From Candidatus Aegiribacteria sp. (GTDB taxonomy: Bacteria; Fermentibacterota; Fermentibacteria; Fermentibacterales; JCC-6), in the NCBI GenBank assembly GCA_030620995.1, contig JAUXIK010000004.1, forward strand, positions 18,447-82,446: a DNA stretch of 64,000 nucleotides, given 5' to 3'. The position numbers and the translations under genes were made by a program. Each line of letters starts with the position of its first letter. Position 1 is the stretch's first letter. Under the pieces are notes generated by a model. That model was not told the origin of the DNA. It worked only from the letters and a program-made list of their open reading frames with translations, and did not search any database. Below, in pieces: positions 4,421 through 55,960 of the stretch.

Positions 4421-5278
4421 GTGAGAGACGGTATGGATATCATTCAGTTCACCAGAGAAGATATTGGTCGAATAGCAACACAGCTCGCCAGAACGGGGTG
4501 GGCCGAGGCCAACGCGGGAAATATCTCCGTTCTGCTTCCGGAAGGAGCAGCCGATACGATATGGGAAAATCAGGTTTTCTCCGATCCGCTCCCGATACCT
4601 ATTCCTGAACTGGCCGGAAGAACTTTCCTTGTGACCTGCGCCTGGAGCCGATTCAGAACACTTCAGCAAAAACTCGACACGGAAATAATCCCTGTCAGGG
4701 TTTCTTCTGATGGACTGAAAATAATCAGACTTAAGGGAAGCAAAGATCCCACAAGCGAGTTCAGTACCCATCTCCTTGTTCTGGCGGGAGCGGTAAGCCG
4801 CGGTTGGACAACAGCCTCTCTCGTTCATACACATTCGACGCATATGCTGGCGCTGTCCTCCAGTGACCTGCCGGGAGAGATGCTCGAAGATGCCGTCAAC
4901 AGATCTCATCCGGAGGTATCTCTTCTCCTCGGACGCGGTGTACGCTTTCTTGATTACATGACCCCCGGCACATGGGAGCTGGGGGTGGAAACAGCAAAGG
5001 TCTTTGAGAACAGTGACTGCGTTATCTGGAGAAAACACGGCATTCTTGGTCTTGGCAGAGATATTGATTCTGCCTGCGACGCGGTTGAAGTTGTAGAAAA
5101 GGCAGCTCGATTACTTCTCCTTGAGAAATCCGCTTTTGGTAAATTCGTAGGTCTGAAAAACCGCGAACTTGTGCCTAAAGACCCTTTGTCCCCAGAAGAC
5201 TCCGATGAAGATATCGATGATACGGATGGCGATTTGCCACCCGGTCTTCCGATTATAGACATTGGGGTCGGATCTTGA
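4421..5278 (+). CDS. Class II aldolase/adducin family protein with an acidic C-terminal tail
   Basis: The GWAEANAGNIS motif and overall fold resemble the fuculose/rhamnulose-1-P aldolase-like family. The last 5 codons and the stop lie inside the REPIN-like repeat. Confidence 0.65.
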   Translation: MRDGMDIIQFTREDIGRIATQLARTGWAEANAGNISVLLPEGAADTIWENQVFSDPLPIPIPELAGRTFLVTCAWSRFRTLQQKLDTEIIPVRVSSDGLKIIRLKGSKDPTSEFSTHLLVLAGAVSRGWTTASLVHTHSTHMLALSSSDLPGEMLEDAVNRSHPEVSLLLGRGVRFLDYMTPGTWELGVETAKVFENSDCVIWRKHGILGLGRDIDSACDAVEVVEKAARLLLLEKSAFGKFVGLKNRELVPKDPLSPEDSDEDIDDTDGDLPPGLPIIDIGVGS

Positions 5279-5390
5279 ATTTTGACATTTCTTAATTTAC
5301 TCAATGACATATACGCGAAAGAATGATTAACTATCAGATATGACACCTTTTCATCTGTCATGAAAATGTTAAAATTCAAGATCCGACCCC
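5264..5390. repeat. REPIN-like element: two inverted REP-like arms, 5264-5291 (GGGGTCGGATCTTGAATTTTGACATTTC) and 5362-5390 (its reverse complement with 1-2 mismatches), separated by a 70-bp spacer
   Basis: Inverted repeat read directly from the sequence. The arms are about 70% identical to the 29-bp inverted repeats that flank the RAYT gene at 12405 and 13357. Confidence 0.6.
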
Positions 5391-6123: not shown

Positions 6124-7467
6124 CTAAGGCGTTAAACGCTTCGCGTCACGGGGAAACATCGTTGTAAGACGGATATTGTCCACATCGAGAATCCTGGCGG
6201 TCATTCTCTCAAGACCTATTGCAAGGCCGCCATGTGGCGGAAGGCCGTATTTGTGCGCCTGCAGATAGCTTTCAAAGTCATCCGGATCAAGCCCGAATTT
6301 CTTCATTTTTTCAACCTGCATTTCGTATTCGTGAATCCTTTGTCCTCCGGTTGTAACCTCGAGACCTCTGAACAGCAGATCGAAGCTCAGCGTTGTACCA
6401 GGATTTGCAGGATCATCCATCGTGTAGAACGGCCTCTTCTCCGTGGGGAAGTGAGTTACAAAAAGGAATTCGGAACCCCATTCCTCCTTTGAATACCTGC
6501 AGAGTATCTTCTCTTCCTCCGGCTCAAGGTCAGGTTCTCTCATGCAGTTCTTCCCGCTGATCTCAGAGGTAATCCTATGTGCTTCCTCCAGCGTAATGGA
6601 AGGTATTTGCTCACCTATTTCAGGCATCTTTGCGCCAAGCATTTCGAGTTCGTACGAAGTGTTCTTCCTCACCCTATAGAGGCAATGCCTCAGAACTGCT
6701 ACCTCAAGCGCCATCACGTCTTCAAATCCGTCAATGAAACCCATCTCAAAATCGAGAGAGGTGTATTCGTTAATATGTCTGGAAGTCTGGTGAGGTTCAG
6801 CTCGGAAAACAGGTCCTACTTCAAACACCCGCTCAAAGATACCTACTCCCATCTGTTTGTAGAACTGTGGGGATTGTGCAAGAAATGCAGGCCGGCCGAA
6901 GTAATCAACTTTAAAGATATTTGCTCCGCCCTCCGCTCCGGCTGAACAGATTTTCGGAGTGCGGATCTCGGTAAATCCCATATTTGAGAGGCTTTCCCTG
7001 AAGCCGAGCGCAAATGATTCCGCAATCTTGAGCCTGGCTCTTTCGCCGGGGTGCCGCAGACTCAGAGGGCGAAGATCAAGATTGGTATCAATGTGCAGAT
7101 CGAGAACTTTTTTGGTCGTATCGACCGGTGGCTGAACCGCAGGTGCTGAAATGATATCGATTGAATCCACATGAATTTCAACAGATGCGGGATGAATTGA
7201 ATTGTCCTTTATTCCGGCTTCCTTTACTGTACCCGTAACTTCAACCGACTGCTCGACATCCAGATTGTCAAGAATCTCTTCGTTTCCGTCATTCCCCATA
7301 ACGCATTGCAGTAATCCGTCATGGCGACGAAGCACGATAAACGCGCCCCAACCAAGGCAGCGGATTCGCTGAATTACGCCATGGAGCGTTACTTTCTCTC
7401 CCGCCATTCCCTCAAGCGTTTCTGCTGAAAGCAGGTTTGTCATTCCTTTATCACTTATACCGATCAT
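6124..7467 (-). CDS. aspS: Aspartate--tRNA ligase, archaeal/type-2 (about 440 aa; possibly non-discriminating)
   Basis: Class IIb motifs FRAEPHQTSRHINEYTSLDFEM and GGLAIGLERM; N-terminal OB-fold anticodon-binding domain; GGAGAGG RBS before the ATG at 7465-7467. Confidence 0.8.
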   Translation of the reverse strand: MIGISDKGMTNLLSAETLEGMAGEKVTLHGVIQRIRCLGWGAFIVLRRHDGLLQCVMGNDGNEEILDNLDVEQSVEVTGTVKEAGIKDNSIHPASVEIHVDSIDIISAPAVQPPVDTTKKVLDLHIDTNLDLRPLSLRHPGERARLKIAESFALGFRESLSNMGFTEIRTPKICSAGAEGGANIFKVDYFGRPAFLAQSPQFYKQMGVGIFERVFEVGPVFRAEPHQTSRHINEYTSLDFEMGFIDGFEDVMALEVAVLRHCLYRVRKNTSYELEMLGAKMPEIGEQIPSITLEEAHRITSEISGKNCMREPDLEPEEEKILCRYSKEEWGSEFLFVTHFPTEKRPFYTMDDPANPGTTLSFDLLFRGLEVTTGGQRIHEYEMQVEKMKKFGLDPDDFESYLQAHKYGLPPHGGLAIGLERMTARILDVDNIRLTTMFPRDAKRLTP

Positions 7468-10805: not shown

Positions 10806-12405
10806 TTGAAACTTTATAGAATCTGCTTAACAGCTTCAGTATTATTACTGCTTTTTCTCACTTCGTGTTTCGGCTCTTCGGTAGATAATTCAACCTGGAT
10901 TCTGATTGTCAGAGATGACTCCGTATCCGTTGGACAGCTTGGTGAATCATGGCTTGGAATGGATAGCCTTCAGAGGGAATCTTTCCTGTCAAAGGACAAT
11001 ACTATTGGTGAATTCATTGTCGCATACGGGAGAAGAGTCATCCTTGAGAAGGAGCTGGAAGCAGAGGGATATTTGACTGATCCTCTTTTTCTGTCTTACA
11101 GAAATTCATGGTTGATGGTCGAAACCGCCACGGCCGCAAAGAAATTGCTGGTTGAGCGGGAGGCTGCTGAAGTTACCGAATCCGATATACAGTTCTACGG
11201 TGAACACCTGGGCAGAAACGTGGTGTATACAGTCTATCCCGGTTCTGAAAATGAATTCAGTATCGGTCCGGTACATCTCCCGAATCTGCGACGTGAACTT
11301 GCCCTGCATCTTGATACATTATCATTCAATGAAATCGGAACTGACGGATCGGGTCTTCTAGTAAGGCTCGATACTCTGATGATGGTCGATTCTATCCTGA
11401 TCAAGAATGCTCTTTCTGATCCAGCCACAGTCAGTGATATGGCGATAAGAGATCTTTCTAATGCAAGATTCAATCGATGGGCACAGGATGTCAGTTACCG
11501 AATCTACACTGATTACTCGGTTACCTTTGATTCAGTTAAAGTTAAAGATTTCACTCAGCACCTTATCGGTAATAATCCTGATATGTCTGATAGCGTTGTT
11601 ATCGTTGAATCGGATTTCGGAACCTGGACAGTGAAATATCTTGAAGATGAGATTCTTTATCTTAGTACTCGTATTGATGTTCAGCCTGGATCTTCAGTCT
11701 GGATTGAAGATATGATTCAGGTCCTGCTGATGCAGTGCTATTTCTATGAGTTCATGCAGGAGGAATCTCCCGGAATACTTGACTCGCTGCGAGATGAATC
11801 CGAAACCTACCTGCTTAGTTTCGCCTCCGAAGAGTACTACAATGACATGATAGGCTCAATTGTAACCGTAACTGAATCAGACATCATATACGAATATGAG
11901 ACTCTTGAAGAACCTTTTATGATTGAGGAGAAGCGTGTACTTCAAGCAGCCTATATTCCAGTTGAGAGGACTGATGATTTCCGGCAGGCTGTATATGAAG
12001 AAAAACTGGAAGAATTTATCTCAGAGCTTGACGGTTTCGGATACCTGGCGGCAGATTCAACTCAAATCCAAATAACTCGACCTCTCAGATTTGGTGAAGT
12101 TCCAGGAGGCCACGGAGAAGAAGTTTTCTTACTCGATCCGTCCGATACGACAAGCTGGCTGGGGCCGGTCAGTGTATTCGCAGATGATGGGTCTGCTCTG
12201 CTCAGGCTTATAGAAGTAGTGCCTTCAAGGGTTGCGAGAATTGATGAAGTCAGGCGAAGTCTGAAGAACATGGCCATGACCAGACTTCAGGAGCAGGCCA
12301 CTGTTGAATTGATTCAGGAACTTGAAGAGAAGTACATTCTTATCATCAATGAAGAGATCCTTGACAAATTGCCTTCGGATCCGGGAATGTGGGCAACTCT
12401 ATAGG
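10806..12405 (+). CDS. Hypothetical lipoprotein (about 533 aa)
   Basis: The probable start is TTG at about 10806 after an AAAGGAAAA RBS, reading (M)KLYRICLTASVLLLLFLTSC with a lipobox. The longer start on the track overlaps the mutase gene. The stop TAG abuts the RAYT left inverted repeat. Confidence 0.5.
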
Positions 12406-13357
12406 GGTCAAACCTTGTATTTTAACATTATGGCTTATTAATATATTATTGCTAGCTATAATATTGTTCGTTCTTTATAATACGAGATACAGTTGCGAAG
12501 TGAAGTCCCAGGAAATCAGCTATCTCCTTCTGGCTGTATCCATACTCAATATATGCCTTGTATATAGCTTTGTCTCTTGCTTCCTTTACAGATCTAACAC
12601 CCAGGTCAAGCAGTTTCTCAATTGAAGGTCTGTCCGCATATCGTTGCCGTTTCAAAAACTCAGATTCATTTTTCGAATCAATCATTATGTCTCTCAGAGA
12701 CTCAACAAATTCGTCTTTACCGAGTATCAATCCACCCCTGGTATCTTCAAGCGGAGAATCACTTGATATTCCATCAAGTACAAACTTCCTGAAATTGCGT
12801 TTGGCCGTTTCCGAAGAACTTCCAAAATGTTCCTGTAGGAAATCGGTCTTAATGAATGGCATGCTTTCGTCAATTCCGACCATCTGCCTGTAACTGCTCC
12901 AAGAATATTCTTCTGGTTTCTCAACAATTCCTGCCCTTACAGGATTAAGTACAATGTACCTGCATAGTTCCAGGAAGTAGTTCTCGCGGTCAACAACAAT
13001 TGCATTATATCTTCCCTGAAAAACATGTCCGACAAGATCATGATGCTTATTGAAGTACTGTGCGTAGATACCGTTGAGGTTTTGCATTCCCATCGACAGA
13101 TTCGTCTCGGGAGTTTCAATAAAAAGATGATAGTGAGTATTCATGAGGCAGAGGTCATAACAATTCCATCCGAACCGATTCAGTATTTTCTGAAATATTT
13201 CAGAAAACTTATGTCTGTCCTCTTCATCAAGATAAATAGGCTGGCAATCGTTACCTCGGGCATAGATGTGGTAGAGCGCTCCTGGGAATTTAATACGTAA
13301 AGGTCTCATAATATATATATTATAATGTCATAATGTTAAAATACAAGGTTTGACCCC
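12405..13357. mobile_element. REP-RAYT unit: a tyrosine-transposase gene bracketed by perfect 29-bp inverted repeats, GGGGTCAAACCTTGTATTTTAACATTATG at 12405-12433 and its exact reverse complement at 13329-13357
   Basis: Inverted repeats read directly from the sequence; the ends abut the stop codons of the two convergent flanking genes. Confidence 0.75.
12452..13309 (-). CDS. rayT: REP-associated tyrosine transposase (IS200/IS605-like Y1 transposase) with a C-terminal helix-turn-helix extension
   Basis: HxH motif (NTHYHLFIET), a downstream conserved Tyr region (YSWSSY), and a C-terminal DnaA-domain-IV-like HTH (YSQKEIADFLGLHFATVSRI). Confidence 0.8.
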   Translation of the reverse strand: MRPLRIKFPGALYHIYARGNDCQPIYLDEEDRHKFSEIFQKILNRFGWNCYDLCLMNTHYHLFIETPETNLSMGMQNLNGIYAQYFNKHHDLVGHVFQGRYNAIVVDRENYFLELCRYIVLNPVRAGIVEKPEEYSWSSYRQMVGIDESMPFIKTDFLQEHFGSSSETAKRNFRKFVLDGISSDSPLEDTRGGLILGKDEFVESLRDIMIDSKNESEFLKRQRYADRPSIEKLLDLGVRSVKEARDKAIYKAYIEYGYSQKEIADFLGLHFATVSRIIKNEQYYS

Positions 13358-13986
13358 TACTGGGGGAAGAATTTGTAGAGATCAAGGTTTCTGATGGCAA
13401 AATTCAATGCCGGATACAGGATTTTTGAAAGGGCTCCAAACCAGAGGAGGCCGAATATGATAAAAATCCCGAAGCGCTCAAGCTTTCTATAACTGTACAG
13501 AGCCTGTCCATGAAGAAATCTCGCTACAATTCTGCTGCCATCAAGGGGTGGAATCGGCAGCAGGTTAAAAACCATAAGAACAATATTCATCAGAGCGGCA
13601 AAGGCCAGGCTATGCATGAGTATGGCCGGCATTATACCGGATGCGAGATGAAGCAGAACTGTTAGCACAAGGGCAATAGCAAGGTTGGTAGCAGGACCTG
13701 CGATAGCAACCCACATCATTCCCTGTTTTGGATCTCGAAAATGCCTGGGGTCAACCGGAACCGGTTTTGCCCATGCGAGCAATATCGGACTGTTGGTTAT
13801 CAACAACATCGCCGGAAGAAGAATGGTTCCAATGGGGTCTATGTGGGGAATTGGATTAAATGTAAGTCTGCCCATTCTATATGCTGTGGGATCGCCAAGC
13901 TTCAGGGCAACATATCCATGAGCTATTTCGTGGCATACGACACTGAAGAAGACAAGGATAATTACGAATGGAGTCTCAATACCCAT
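13357..13986 (-). CDS. Site-2 protease family (M50) membrane metalloprotease
   Basis: HEIAHG (HExxH) inside a TM helix, a downstream LDG motif, and a polytopic membrane profile. Confidence 0.8.
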   Translation of the reverse strand: MGIETPFVIILVFFSVVCHEIAHGYVALKLGDPTAYRMGRLTFNPIPHIDPIGTILLPAMLLITNSPILLAWAKPVPVDPRHFRDPKQGMMWVAIAGPATNLAIALVLTVLLHLASGIMPAILMHSLAFAALMNIVLMVFNLLPIPPLDGSRIVARFLHGQALYSYRKLERFGIFIIFGLLWFGALSKILYPALNFAIRNLDLYKFFPQ

Positions 13987-14778: not shown

Positions 14779-14839
14779 GGGGACACGCAGCAGAGCGTCA
14801 TGTTCTTTGGGGACACGCACCAGAGCCTGCATGTCCCGC
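14779..14839. repeat. REP family 2 doublet (GGGGACACGCAGCAGAGCGTCATGTTCTTT + GGGGACACGCACCAGAGCCTGCATGTCCCGC)
   Basis: Near-identical doublets at 34865-34924 and, inverted, at 46931-46990. Each unit is an imperfect palindrome GGGGACAyGCA...TGCrTGTCCCC. Confidence 0.6.
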
Positions 14840-23162: not shown

Positions 23163-23280
23163 AAGAAAAAAAGCCGCCTGCCGGCGGCCTGAGGTTGCTA
23201 TCGGCTTTTTAGCACTTTTTTTTACGTGGTTGCAATAGACCTCAAATCATTCCACGAAGTTAAATGATACGAGTTATCCC
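23163..23280 (-). promoter_or_regulatory. Structured metK 5' leader: intrinsic terminator (GCCGCC-GGCA-GGCGGC + U7) 30 nt upstream of the start codon, preceded by a candidate SAM-II/V-like aptamer
   Basis: The terminator hairpin and U-run are read on the minus strand. The upstream segments UAUUGCAAC and GUGCUAAAAAGCC loosely resemble SAM-II conserved blocks; the class is not confirmed. Confidence 0.3.
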
Positions 23281-23452
23281 GACAAAGTCAATCATCAGGA
23301 ATAGTTGTTTATTCTCTGCATTTTCCATCTACCCGAAAGGATATCTAATCGTGAATGCCGGGCATTACTGTCATTGACAGATGAAAGCTACTGTTGGTTA
23401 TATTAATTTCAGATAAATAAAGTATATTATGTTAGTGAACTGCTTCAAAATT

Positions 23453-23493
23453 TGATTCCGGTGCGTTGGGAAATTAAGTTTTCAACTCATTAC
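23453..23493. repeat. 41-bp direct repeat copy A (TGATTCCGGTGCGTTGGGAAATTAAGTTTTCAACTCATTAC); its partner is at 27743-27783
   Basis: 38 of 41 bases identical to copy B. Together the copies bracket the 942-aa T9SS cargo gene and the beta-propeller gene. Confidence 0.55.
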
Positions 23494-27520: not shown

Positions 27521-27742
27521 ATTTATCCTTCTTTCACGATATCAATAACTGGTGAAAATCAATTTCCTTATTGGAATATGTAATGATACAAAACTATCTA
27601 ATGCATGATAATGAACCCTATGTAAAATAATAAGGGGGGGGTAAAGCATGTCAATAACTCATTTAATTAATACTGCTAAAGGAACATTGATATTCAGAAA
27701 CCATACCCGAGGTATAGTGGCCAAATGAACCATGTCAGGAGG

Positions 27743-27783
27743 TGATTCCGGTGCGTTTGGAAATCAAGTTTTCAACTGATTAC
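27743..27783. repeat. 41-bp direct repeat copy B (TGATTCCGGTGCGTTTGGAAATCAAGTTTTCAACTGATTAC)
   Basis: See copy A; preceded by AGGAGGTG. Confidence 0.55.
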
Positions 27784-34508: not shown

Positions 34509-34864
34509 AGTTTCCTCTCCTGTTCTCTTTCTCCCGAAGGGAGTAAGTTTCTGTTAATAAATCTTTTCCGCCATTCGGCTTTCAATATTTGTTTCGGGAT
34601 TACACCCGCCTGCTAAAACTTCCTGAAAGGCTTCTTCTCTTTTATGTCACCGTTCAGGTTTCTTTTTTCCCAAATACAGTGGAGCAATCAACATGCCAGA
34701 AATTGGAAGAGTGCTATGCGGTTGCACATCAGATATTTACAATTCATCCAGACAATCGTTATCAACTCCTCCACAAAATATACGTGCTATTGTGGCACAT
34801 CCCTTGGGGGTATGGTGATATAGTATATTAAACGGTTAATATGGTCGCGGGAGGCAAGTTTTTT

Positions 34865-34924
34865 GGGGACACGCACCAGAGCGTCGTGCTTTTTGGGGAC
34901 ACGCACCAGAGCGTGCATGTCCCC
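34865..34924. repeat. REP family 2 doublet (GGGGACACGCACCAGAGCGTCGTGCTTTTT + GGGGACACGCACCAGAGCGTGCATGTCCCC), 12 bp upstream of the uvrA start
   Basis: Same family as 14779 and 46931. Confidence 0.6.
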
Positions 34925-46930: not shown

Positions 46931-46990
46931 GGGGACATGCAGGCTCTGCTGCGTGTCCCCAAAAAACCTGACGCTCTGCTGCATGTCCCT
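46931..46990. repeat. REP family 2 doublet in inverted orientation (GGGGACATGCAGGCTCTGCTGCGTGTCCCC + AAAAAACCTGACGCTCTGCTGCATGTCCC)
   Basis: Reverse complement of the doublets at 14779 and 34865. Confidence 0.6.
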
Positions 46991-47035
46991 AACATCATTT
47001 TATTCCATATTACGCTATTGGGCAAACGTCGTGTT

Positions 47036-55754: not shown

Positions 55755-55960
55755 TTTCTTACAGTATAGAATAAGATATTCAGAAATTTGGATTATCTTA
55801 CAGTATGGAATAAGTTTGCACCCAGAATAATCGAAGCATTAACCGAATCTTGTATTGTATCAGCCAATCCCTGATTCTTGTTGACATGACATTTCTTACA
55901 GTATAGAATAAGATATTCAAAAGGTGGTGATATTCTTGCATTATAGAAGAAGTTTGTATC
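55755..55960. repeat. Tandem duplication (about 138 bp) of the promoter and 5' end of the DUF4143 ATPase gene; 27-bp repeat copies at 55755, 55794, 55893 and 55933
   Basis: R1 and R3 are identical (TTCTTACAGTATAGAATAAGATATTCA), and R2 and R4 are related. A sigma70-like TTGACA (55881-55886), then 15-16 nt, then TATAGAAT lies in the downstream unit. Confidence 0.55.

Follow-up and report, generated by a model that had tools for sequence, protein, structure and literature searches.

The DNA analyzed here, a 64-kb window of contig JAUXIK010000004.1 from Candidatus Aegiribacteria sp. (Fermentibacteria), carries a compact element at positions 12402 to 13359. This element spans 958 bp and comprises one transposase gene enclosed within terminal inverted repeats (TIRs). 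The gene (12452 to 13309, minus strand) encodes a protein of 285 amino acids with an N-terminal HUH/Y1 nuclease domain, a helical middle portion and a probable C-terminal helix-turn-helix (HTH) tail. On one side lies a plus-strand gene (10806 to 12404) for a protein of 532 amino acids that is specific to Fermentibacteria, has no assigned function and matches no Pfam family. On the other side, a minus-strand gene (13357 to 13986) encodes an M50 (S2P-type) metallopeptidase of 209 amino acids (Peptidase_M50, 53.9 bits). As argued below, the region is probably a TIRtron, a chromosome-resident and vertically inherited unit formed by a single-copy gene for a TIR-associated tyrosine transposase (TIRYT) and its pair of inverted arms.

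The repeats at the two ends of the element are long and perfectly matched. The first-pass annotation of this DNA had reported perfect 29-bp termini at 12405 to 12433 and at 13329 to 13357. The 29-mer GGGGTCAAACCTTGTATTTTAACATTATG is indeed present, and its exact reverse complement lies at 13329 to 13357 as described, although the plus-strand copy occupies 12404 to 12432, one base lower than reported, and the perfect inverted repeat actually measures 31 nt (12402 to 12432 and 13329 to 13359). Within the window this 29-mer has two matches, compared with none in 100 dinucleotide-preserving shuffles. The arm on the 3′ side of the transposase gene reads TAGGGGTCAAACCTTGTATTTTAACATTATG on the plus strand, and the arm on the 5′ side, on the minus strand, is its exact reverse complement. 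Imperfect pairing extends inward to 12446 on one side and from 13315 on the other, such that the arms are 91% complementary over 45 nt. The same annotation held that both flanking genes end inside the element, and this description is accurate, as both TAG stop codons fall wholly within the 31-nt arms. Specifically, the first three bases of the 3′-side arm (12402 to 12404) form the stop codon of the 532-amino-acid gene, whose C-terminus is full length, and the outer three bases of the 5′-side arm (13359 to 13357) form the stop codon of the M50 peptidase gene.

Taken alone, neither arm contains an internal palindrome, and neither folds more stably than shuffled sequence. When 66-nt stretches around each arm were folded on both strands, the resulting z-scores were +1.06, -0.30, +1.46 and -0.19, and no hairpin was found within either arm on either strand. 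The expectation that each repeat would form a hairpin of its own therefore fails, with z between -0.3 and +1.5. When the whole element (972 nt) is folded as single-stranded DNA, a terminal stem is formed by its two arms, and a doublet of related arms elsewhere in the window also folds, as detailed below. Because single arms remain unfolded while the doublet and the whole element fold, structure appears only where two inverted arms pair. A scan of positions 12200 to 13600 revealed no intrinsic terminator made by the arms, and a search of Rfam returned nothing at the gathering threshold at or near the element. We also considered a TA target-site duplication and rejected it, as the TA beside the GGGG ends belongs to the inverted repeat and is not seen next to other arms.

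The encoded protein has the fold and the motifs of the HUH/Y1 family. It matches the Pfam family Y1_Tnp with 47.6 bits (cut-off 23), and residues H59-Y60-H61 and Y118, the latter within RYIVLNPV, are invariant in an alignment of 32 sequences comprising the protein and 31 homologues. The earlier call of an enclosed Y1 transposase with an HxH...Y signature is thus upheld. Its best NCBIfam family is REP_Tyr_transpos (NF047646), with a score of 65.7 bits that lies under the cut-off of 80, and transpos_IS200 (NF033573) yields 20.7 bits against a cut-off of 55. The C-terminal HTH that had also been proposed is seen as helices in an AlphaFold2 model (pLDDT 94, pTM 0.89), where the segments at residues 236 to 284 form a bundle, but the Pfam matches over residues 233 to 281 are weak and stay under their cut-offs (HTH_Crp_2, 24.3 bits; HTH_23, 21.1 bits). 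The top Foldseek match to this model is 4ER8, the Escherichia coli TnpA-REP protein bound to a hairpin of a repetitive extragenic palindrome (REP), with a TM score of 0.74 over the target, followed by the ISDra2, IS608 and IS200 transposases. Only this fold search succeeded in linking the protein to solved structures; sequence searches of the PDB, conducted with the single protein and with the 32-sequence profile, matched no HUH enzyme. An exact-protein look-up found no record of the window's product, and the closest protein match, from GCA_023131525.1, is 95% identical. Some databases label homologues "RayT". With fair confidence, we regard the protein as a HUH/Y1 single-strand DNA nuclease (predicted activity) that resembles the REP-associated tyrosine transposases (RAYTs) and carries a putative C-terminal HTH domain.

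The locus belongs to a class that has already been described and is not a new kind of system. The paper by Di Nocera, De Gregorio and Rocco (2013, BMC Genomics 14:522; PMC3733652) reports RAYT-like genes that have long TIRs in place of REPs, and names the proteins TIRYTs and the units TIRtrons. TIRtron arms share the motif GGGGWSAS and lie at a roughly constant distance from the gene, and orphan families of TIR arms are "moderately abundant" as singles, dimers and groups (PMC3733652). The element in the window agrees in having a RAYT-like Y1 protein longer than RAYTs, long flanking inverted repeats that are not themselves palindromes, a constant distance from arm to coding sequence, and a small family of orphan arms arranged as singles, dimers and groups. 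Its arms also begin with the motif, which reads GGGGTCAG in most relatives and GGGGTCAA in the window. The window sequence fits at seven of the eight positions, and the related loci L006 and L117, together with most of the 80 distant homologues introduced below, fit at all eight.

Two aspects differ. The host phylum is new (Candidatus Aegiribacteria / Fermentibacteria), and the last position of the motif and the block that follows it are changed in both arms (AGGT to AAAC). The long-term synteny, the arm-to-arm conversion and the putative arm-embedded leaderless promoter described below draw on evidence from the present locus and go beyond the passages of PMC3733652 consulted. A later classification assigned 20 of 26 TIRYTs to subclass 2.1 of the TnpA-Y1 proteins, whose members have C-terminal domains resembling HTH_23, HTH_28 or Bac_DnaA_C and in which REPs are absent (Quentin, Siguier, Chandler and Fichant, 2018, BMC Genomics 19:475; PMC6006769). 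The window protein has the same HUH/Y1 core and extension, a putative C-terminal HTH-like domain and no REPs nearby and, judged by this architecture, is likely a member of subclass 2.1 (subgroup 2.1.2). The TnpA proteins of the IS200/IS605 group (IS608, ISDra2) likewise share the HUH/Y1 fold and the catalytic residues. In contrast, those enzymes measure only about 130 to 150 amino acids, and their elements are multi-copy, spread horizontally and have subterminal hairpins in the same orientation but no TIRs, whereas the 285-amino-acid protein of the window is flanked by TIRs, and its gene is present at this site as a single syntenic copy.

The arms are not peculiar to this lineage. A protein-based scan of metagenome contigs, which made no use of the arm sequence, yielded 80 loci with homologues that are 41 to 48% identical to the window protein. 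When the best inverted repeat spanning each of the 80 genes was then sought blind, the great majority proved to have arms starting with (G)GGGTCAGGTCTTG. The 12-mer GGGTCAGGTCTT, counted with up to two mismatches, is present within 260 nt upstream of the start in 69 of the 76 loci with enough flanking sequence, and in inverted orientation within 300 nt downstream in 65 of 73. Most commonly, 51 nt separate this core from the beginning of the protein match, with a second cluster at 58 to 60 nt. When measured from the first G of GGGTC to residue 2, the distance in the window is 50 nt by hand count, compared with a family mode of 51 nt. The core in the window lineage is GGGGTCAAACCTTG in both arms, whereas most homologues have (G)GGGTCAGGTCTTG. 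One homologue resides on a replicon of the cultured bacterium Legionella adelaidensis and has GGGTCAGGCCTTG on both sides. In a separate search, a strict 26-nt arm pattern with 21 specified bases was run against one genome per species (596 Gb; estimated chance expectation of about 0.3). It gave 24 loci, of which 17 are in metagenome-assembled genomes (MAGs) of Fermentibacteria and 7 in other phyla, and 3 of these 7 bracket homologues that are 44 to 46% identical. The arms therefore belong to a family-wide conserved terminal sequence located at a fixed distance from the start codon.

One further difference separates upstream from downstream arms. Only the upstream arms run into TGnTAnnnT, a sequence resembling an extended -10 element, which is followed a few bases later by ATG. 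For this reason, the CTTG block of the arm looks like a -35 element that would drive transcription of a leaderless message. A putative promoter of this type in the window lies partly inside the 5′-side arm (13310 to 13346, minus strand), with TTGTAT at 13346 to 13341, a 16-nt spacer, TATAAT at 13324 to 13319, and 9 nt to the ATG. If used as predicted from this sequence, the TTGTAT/TATAAT promoter would produce a leaderless or nearly leaderless mRNA. A consensus scan of the same stretch proposed other hexamers (TTAACA, an 18-nt spacer and TATATT).

The element has occupied its position for a long time. It sits beside the same M50 peptidase gene in eight other loci (L001, L002, L003, L004, L006, L019, L115 and L117), and this gene is its constant neighbor in every relative examined. 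Identity of the TIRYT protein to that of the window is 95% in L001 and L002, 86% in L019, 82% in L003, 81% in L004, 60% in L117 and 48% in L006. Synonymous divergence (dS) between the window and L001 is 0.089 for the TIRYT gene and 0.045 to 0.085 for its neighbors, and the corresponding values for L003 and L004 are 0.59 to 0.66 and 0.34 to 0.61. The ratio of nonsynonymous to synonymous divergence (dN/dS) for the TIRYT gene ranges from 0.15 to 0.33. Given these ratios, and because its dS is like that of the neighboring genes, the element has co-diverged with the chromosome under purifying selection. Its association with the M50 gene predates the split of these Aegiribacteria lineages, and it is an old resident rather than a fresh insertion. 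Both the shared M50-side location, which extends down to 48% protein identity, and the dS values argue against the recent activity that had been suggested as one explanation for the perfect termini. No relatives of the TIRYT were found among viral contigs and phage records, and a collection of 72,556 plasmids gave one near-full-length match at comparable identity (43%).

How, then, did the element come to touch the stop codons of both neighbors? The junction with the M50 gene is old, and in most lineages the arm there directly adjoins the stop codon or overlaps it. The M50 gene ends with TAG in the window, L001, L004 and L006, and with TAA in L003, L019 and L115; in L117 its stop codon lies 17 nt from the arm. 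The other side has a different history. A gene with a Por_Secre_tail domain (a type IX secretion signal) and similarity to Peptidase_C25, hereafter the Por gene, separates the element from the 532-amino-acid gene in L004, L006, L019, L114 and L116 (for example, at 6639 to 8135 in L004 and 6684 to 8162 in L006). It is absent in the window, where 12398 to 12401 is the matching interval, and in L001, L115, L117 and L005. Comparison of these sequences indicates that the element originally lay between the M50 gene and the co-directional Por gene. In a more distant genome of the Fermentibacteraceae (L008/L009), the M50 gene is followed by the Por gene (6660 to 8162 in L008) with a 110-bp spacer and no element, and this arrangement likely represents the ancestral empty state.

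The flush junction on the left arose through deletion of the Por gene. The breakpoints at 12397/12402 in the window correspond to 6592/8159 in L004, and the 532-amino-acid protein is full length after the deletion, with only its final residue differing from most relatives (L for F). L117, which also lacks the Por gene, has 4 nt between stop codon and arm, and its state may reflect an independent deletion or recombination. In all Por-less lineages that retain the element, the deletion boundary lies 0 to 4 nt from the end of the arm. L005, whose flanking protein is 79% identical, has neither the Por gene nor the element, and 6 nt separate its two stop codons. Because closer relatives of L005 carry both, this locus is best read as a secondary loss. 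The proposal of an insertion placed exactly between the stop codons of two convergent genes thus matches the present layout of the window but not its history, as the junction became flush only after the Por deletion. Sites without the element do exist among relatives (L005 and L008/L009), but the eight other loci are occupied.

The perfection of the arms is likewise a property of one lineage. Over 29 nt, there are no mismatches between the arms in the window and L001, three in L117, four in L003, five in L004 and L006, and six in L019 and L115. In L003, L004, L019 and L115, the 5′-side arm reads ...TTTTGACATT.TG and the 3′-side arm ...TTTATAC(T/A)TATTG, whereas the window and L001 have ...TTTTAACATTATG(G) in both arms. 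Since the 3′-side arm of the latter two loci carries the 5′-side sequence, it was overwritten by the 5′-side version, including a shared G-to-A change. The sequence comparisons therefore point to arm-to-arm conversion, specific to the lineage of the window and L001, as the source of the perfect arms. This agrees with the earlier suggestion of strong maintenance. A single event that produced both the Por deletion and the conversion of the 3′ arm can be rejected, as L115 has the deletion junction aactcTATAGGGGTC and unconverted arms; the deletion must therefore have preceded the conversion. The 4-nt block tells a similar story on a longer time scale. It is AAAC in both arms throughout the clade of the window and AGGT in L006, L117 and the wider family, and the two arms accordingly evolve in concert.

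Related arms also occur away from the transposase gene. The window contains four arms in total, two of which form a non-coding doublet of 127 nt. This doublet, in the manner of a REPIN or of a miniature inverted-repeat transposable element, consists of GGGGTCGGATCTTGAATTTTGACATT and GGGGTCGGATCTTGAATTTTAACATT (5264 to 5290 and 5364 to 5390). The first-pass annotation had noticed this related pair, which is real: its 27-nt arms are 96% complementary, are separated by a 73-nt spacer and carry the core GGAT. The doublet folds as one long hairpin (-29.8 kcal/mol, z = -7.7), and the aldolase-family gene upstream of it (4421 to 5278) ends in a TGA (5276 to 5278) located inside the doublet. The same doublet is present at the orthologous site in L016 (about 90% nucleotide identity). 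Arms in related MAGs occur as singles, as hairpin doublets (73 nt overall, L017 and L030) and as direct pairs (L027). Many coincide with the stop codon of the upstream gene. A TAG abuts the arm in L014, L025 and both arms of the window element, and genes end at TGA or TAA inside the arm in L013, L022, L024, L029 and L031, as they do at 5276 to 5278 in the window.

Several additional observations concern these arms. An identical 26-mer, GGGGTCGTATCTTGAATTTTGACATT, is found in MAGs of different Fermentibacteria species (L011, L012, L015, L026, L028 (CSMAG_515), L017, L027, L030 and L032), and no cognate TIRYT gene was found within 4 to 8 kb around each copy. We considered whether a second TIRYT paralogue stands behind the arms with GGAT or GTAT blocks, but the 60% identical candidate, P0004, proved to be the orthologue at the M50 site, and no paralogue was found. 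In L022 (3870 to 4740) and L023 (5799 to 6668), two inverted arms of the AAAC type surround a DUF6144 gene of 231 amino acids with no transposase gene. This pair lies between a transaldolase/Fsa-like gene and a gene for a transketolase N-terminal subunit; the longest open reading frame of the latter starts in the arm, and the N-terminal sequence KIQGLTP would be arm-encoded. In L004 (8143 to 8166), the outermost bases of the arm are tandemly duplicated, with CCCCCTAAGGGT occurring twice, and L117 (843 to 868) has a short tandem duplication of the outermost arm bases, AATTGGGGTC...AATTTGGGGTC. The duplications in L004 and L117 may be footprints of activity, or of slippage, at the arm ends.

The features above suggest a working model for the TIRYT and its arms. 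The protein would recognize the conserved core of the arm, probably through the HTH acting on duplex DNA. Given that a single arm cannot fold, the paired-arm stem is the proposed substrate of the Y1 active site, which would act on single-stranded DNA in which two inverted arms are annealed, either as a hairpin in the doublets or as a panhandle in the full element. Such activity might occasionally copy or move short arm doublets, as has been proposed for RAYTs acting on REPINs. The 5′-side arm is also proposed to supply the -35 element for transcription of the TIRYT gene, so the protein, by binding this arm, would regulate its own expression. Finally, the conversion that made the arms identical in the lineage of the window and L001 might be explained by annealing of the two arms and subsequent correction of mismatches, or by templated repair.

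Some observations weigh against this model and against the assignment as a TIRtron. The number of arms is low, with 5 to 6 strict-pattern arms in each of the best-sampled related MAGs, far from the tens to hundreds of a REPIN population. The dispersed arms carry a GGAT or GTAT block, whereas the arms of the gene itself, in the same genomes, carry AAAC. The recognition helix of the putative HTH (TVSRI) remained unchanged while the arm core went from AGGT to AAAC, and because of this constancy the HTH may not read that block. The description of the TIRYT gene as single copy refers to one copy in the 64-kb window and to the relatives. Lastly, no biochemical work on any TIRYT was found in the literature searched, where the term is used by two papers only, and for that reason binding, cleavage and mobilization are all inferred.

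Three other explanations for the locus deserve consideration. As background, each REP is a short imperfect palindrome that forms a hairpin and has a conserved tetranucleotide, of the GTAG type, at its foot, and REPIN populations typically comprise tens to hundreds of copies. A RAYT (TnpA-REP) together with its flanking REPs or REPINs constitutes a REPtron (Nunvar 2010; Bertels and Rainey 2011; Ton-Hoang 2012). A classical REPtron, with individually folding REPs drawn from an abundant REP/REPIN population, is what the first-pass annotation had in mind when it called this locus a textbook REP-RAYT-REP unit. Much of that description is apt. The closest solved fold is TnpA-REP (4ER8), the best NCBIfam family and some database labels point to the same group, and a single-copy, vertically inherited gene lies between inverted cognate repeats, as expected for RAYT groups 2 and 3 (PMC5581495). 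In addition, related copies are dispersed, short doublets form hairpins, and the doublet at 5264 to 5390 has REPIN-like geometry. What the locus lacks are the REPs themselves: the arms are not palindromic, do not fold singly and include no GTAG-tagged hairpin, and they are few in the window and the related MAGs. The protein, with its 285 amino acids and putative HTH tail, also departs from RAYTs such as the 165-residue chain of 4ER8, which have no HTH tail, and its score against the NCBIfam REP model falls short of the cut-off. The literature separates such an architecture under the name TIRYT (PMC3733652; PMC6006769). We therefore view a classical REPtron as improbable and the locus as a TIR-flanked variant.

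More improbable still is the recent arrival, between convergent genes, of an active, autonomous insertion sequence whose perfect repeats mark a young copy. Perfect 31-nt TIRs around one transposase gene, the length of 958 bp, the TA that flanks the GGGG ends on either side, and the missing element in the close relative L005 would all suit such a history, which we judge to be very unlikely. The M50-side position is shared with eight other loci, dS matches that of the flanking genes, relatives with the element at the same site have imperfect arms, and L115 places the Por deletion before the arm conversion. There is no second copy in the window, and the viral and phage collections contain no member of the family, plasmids almost none. 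The TA is not found beside other arms and so is not a target-site duplication, and the empty site of L005, where the Por gene present in the closest relatives is missing as well, is most plausibly a secondary deletion. A somewhat different possibility, which we hold to be doubtful, is that the protein is a domesticated host factor that binds or nicks DNA but does not mobilize it. The arms would then serve as an operator/promoter on the 5′ side and as a transcript-end element on the 3′ side, and scattered arms would be selected binding sites or terminator-like hairpins. The fixed 51-nt spacing from core to start, the restriction of TGnTAnnnT to upstream arms, purifying selection with vertical inheritance, the identical GTAT-type 26-mers in MAGs of different species, and the location of arms at gene ends all fit this alternative. 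Yet the HUH motif and the tyrosine do not vary within the family, an argument for retained nuclease chemistry, and the downstream arm is conserved as well as the upstream arm even though it has no promoter role. Moreover, arm presence varies, as seen with the DUF6144 pair of L022 and L023 and the micro-duplications of L004 and L117, suggesting activity at the DNA level.

The window holds other features that lie apart from the element. A palindromic repeat family, GGGGACAYGCAG...CTGCGTGTCCCC, often present as two units, occurs at 14780 to 14837, 34863 to 34924 and 46931 to 46992, with a strong hairpin predicted for every copy (RNA z = -2.3 to -4.8). In L004, L006, L114 and L116, the 532-amino-acid gene is followed by related hairpins of the form GGGGACA.../...TGTCCCC. 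This family looks REP-like or terminator-like and is unrelated to the TIR arms. The only Rfam match in the window is a SAM-II riboswitch at 23199 to 23261 on the minus strand (48 bits; gathering score 44). About 175 nt from it lies the first copy (23436 to 23493) of a 58-nt direct repeat, whose second copy (27726 to 27783; 81% identity) is 4.3 kb away. In addition, three direct copies of the 31-nt AT-rich sequence TTTCTTACAGTATAGAATAAGATATTCAGAA are found within 170 nt (55755 to 55785, 55794 to 55824 and 55892 to 55922), with 97% and 68% identity to the reference copy.

Returning to the TIRtron at the M50 site, its relatives invite a broader and rather speculative reading of the family, to which we assign a low probability. 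Rather than transposases of the usual kind, TIRYTs may be long-domesticated chromosomal nucleases that have the arm core as an obligatory partner in cis and that act at arm ends through conversion, arm seeding and boundary deletions. The family is very large and chromosomal, with more than 3,000 members among the matches listed, and the core GGGGTCAGGTCTTG, located at a fixed 51 nt from a putatively leaderless start, is near-invariant from phylum to phylum even though protein identity has fallen to about 45%. If this reading were true, the enzyme would keep arm pairs identical by conversion and would seed arms onto the 3′ ends of genes, which would thereby gain their stop codons. Deletions with an endpoint exactly at the arm boundary would likewise be favored by the enzyme, a possibility hinted at by the two flush or nearly flush Por-less arrangements, one in the window, L001 and L115 and the other in L117. 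Regardless of the fate of this idea, the locus offers a natural series in which one element can be followed at one site through relatives whose element proteins range from 95% to 48% identity to that of the window. The series shows that the gene and its arms are inherited vertically under purifying selection, that the two arms change together, and that flush junctions with stop codons can arise by deletion instead of targeted insertion. These relationships provide context for studies of how HUH enzymes become domesticated.

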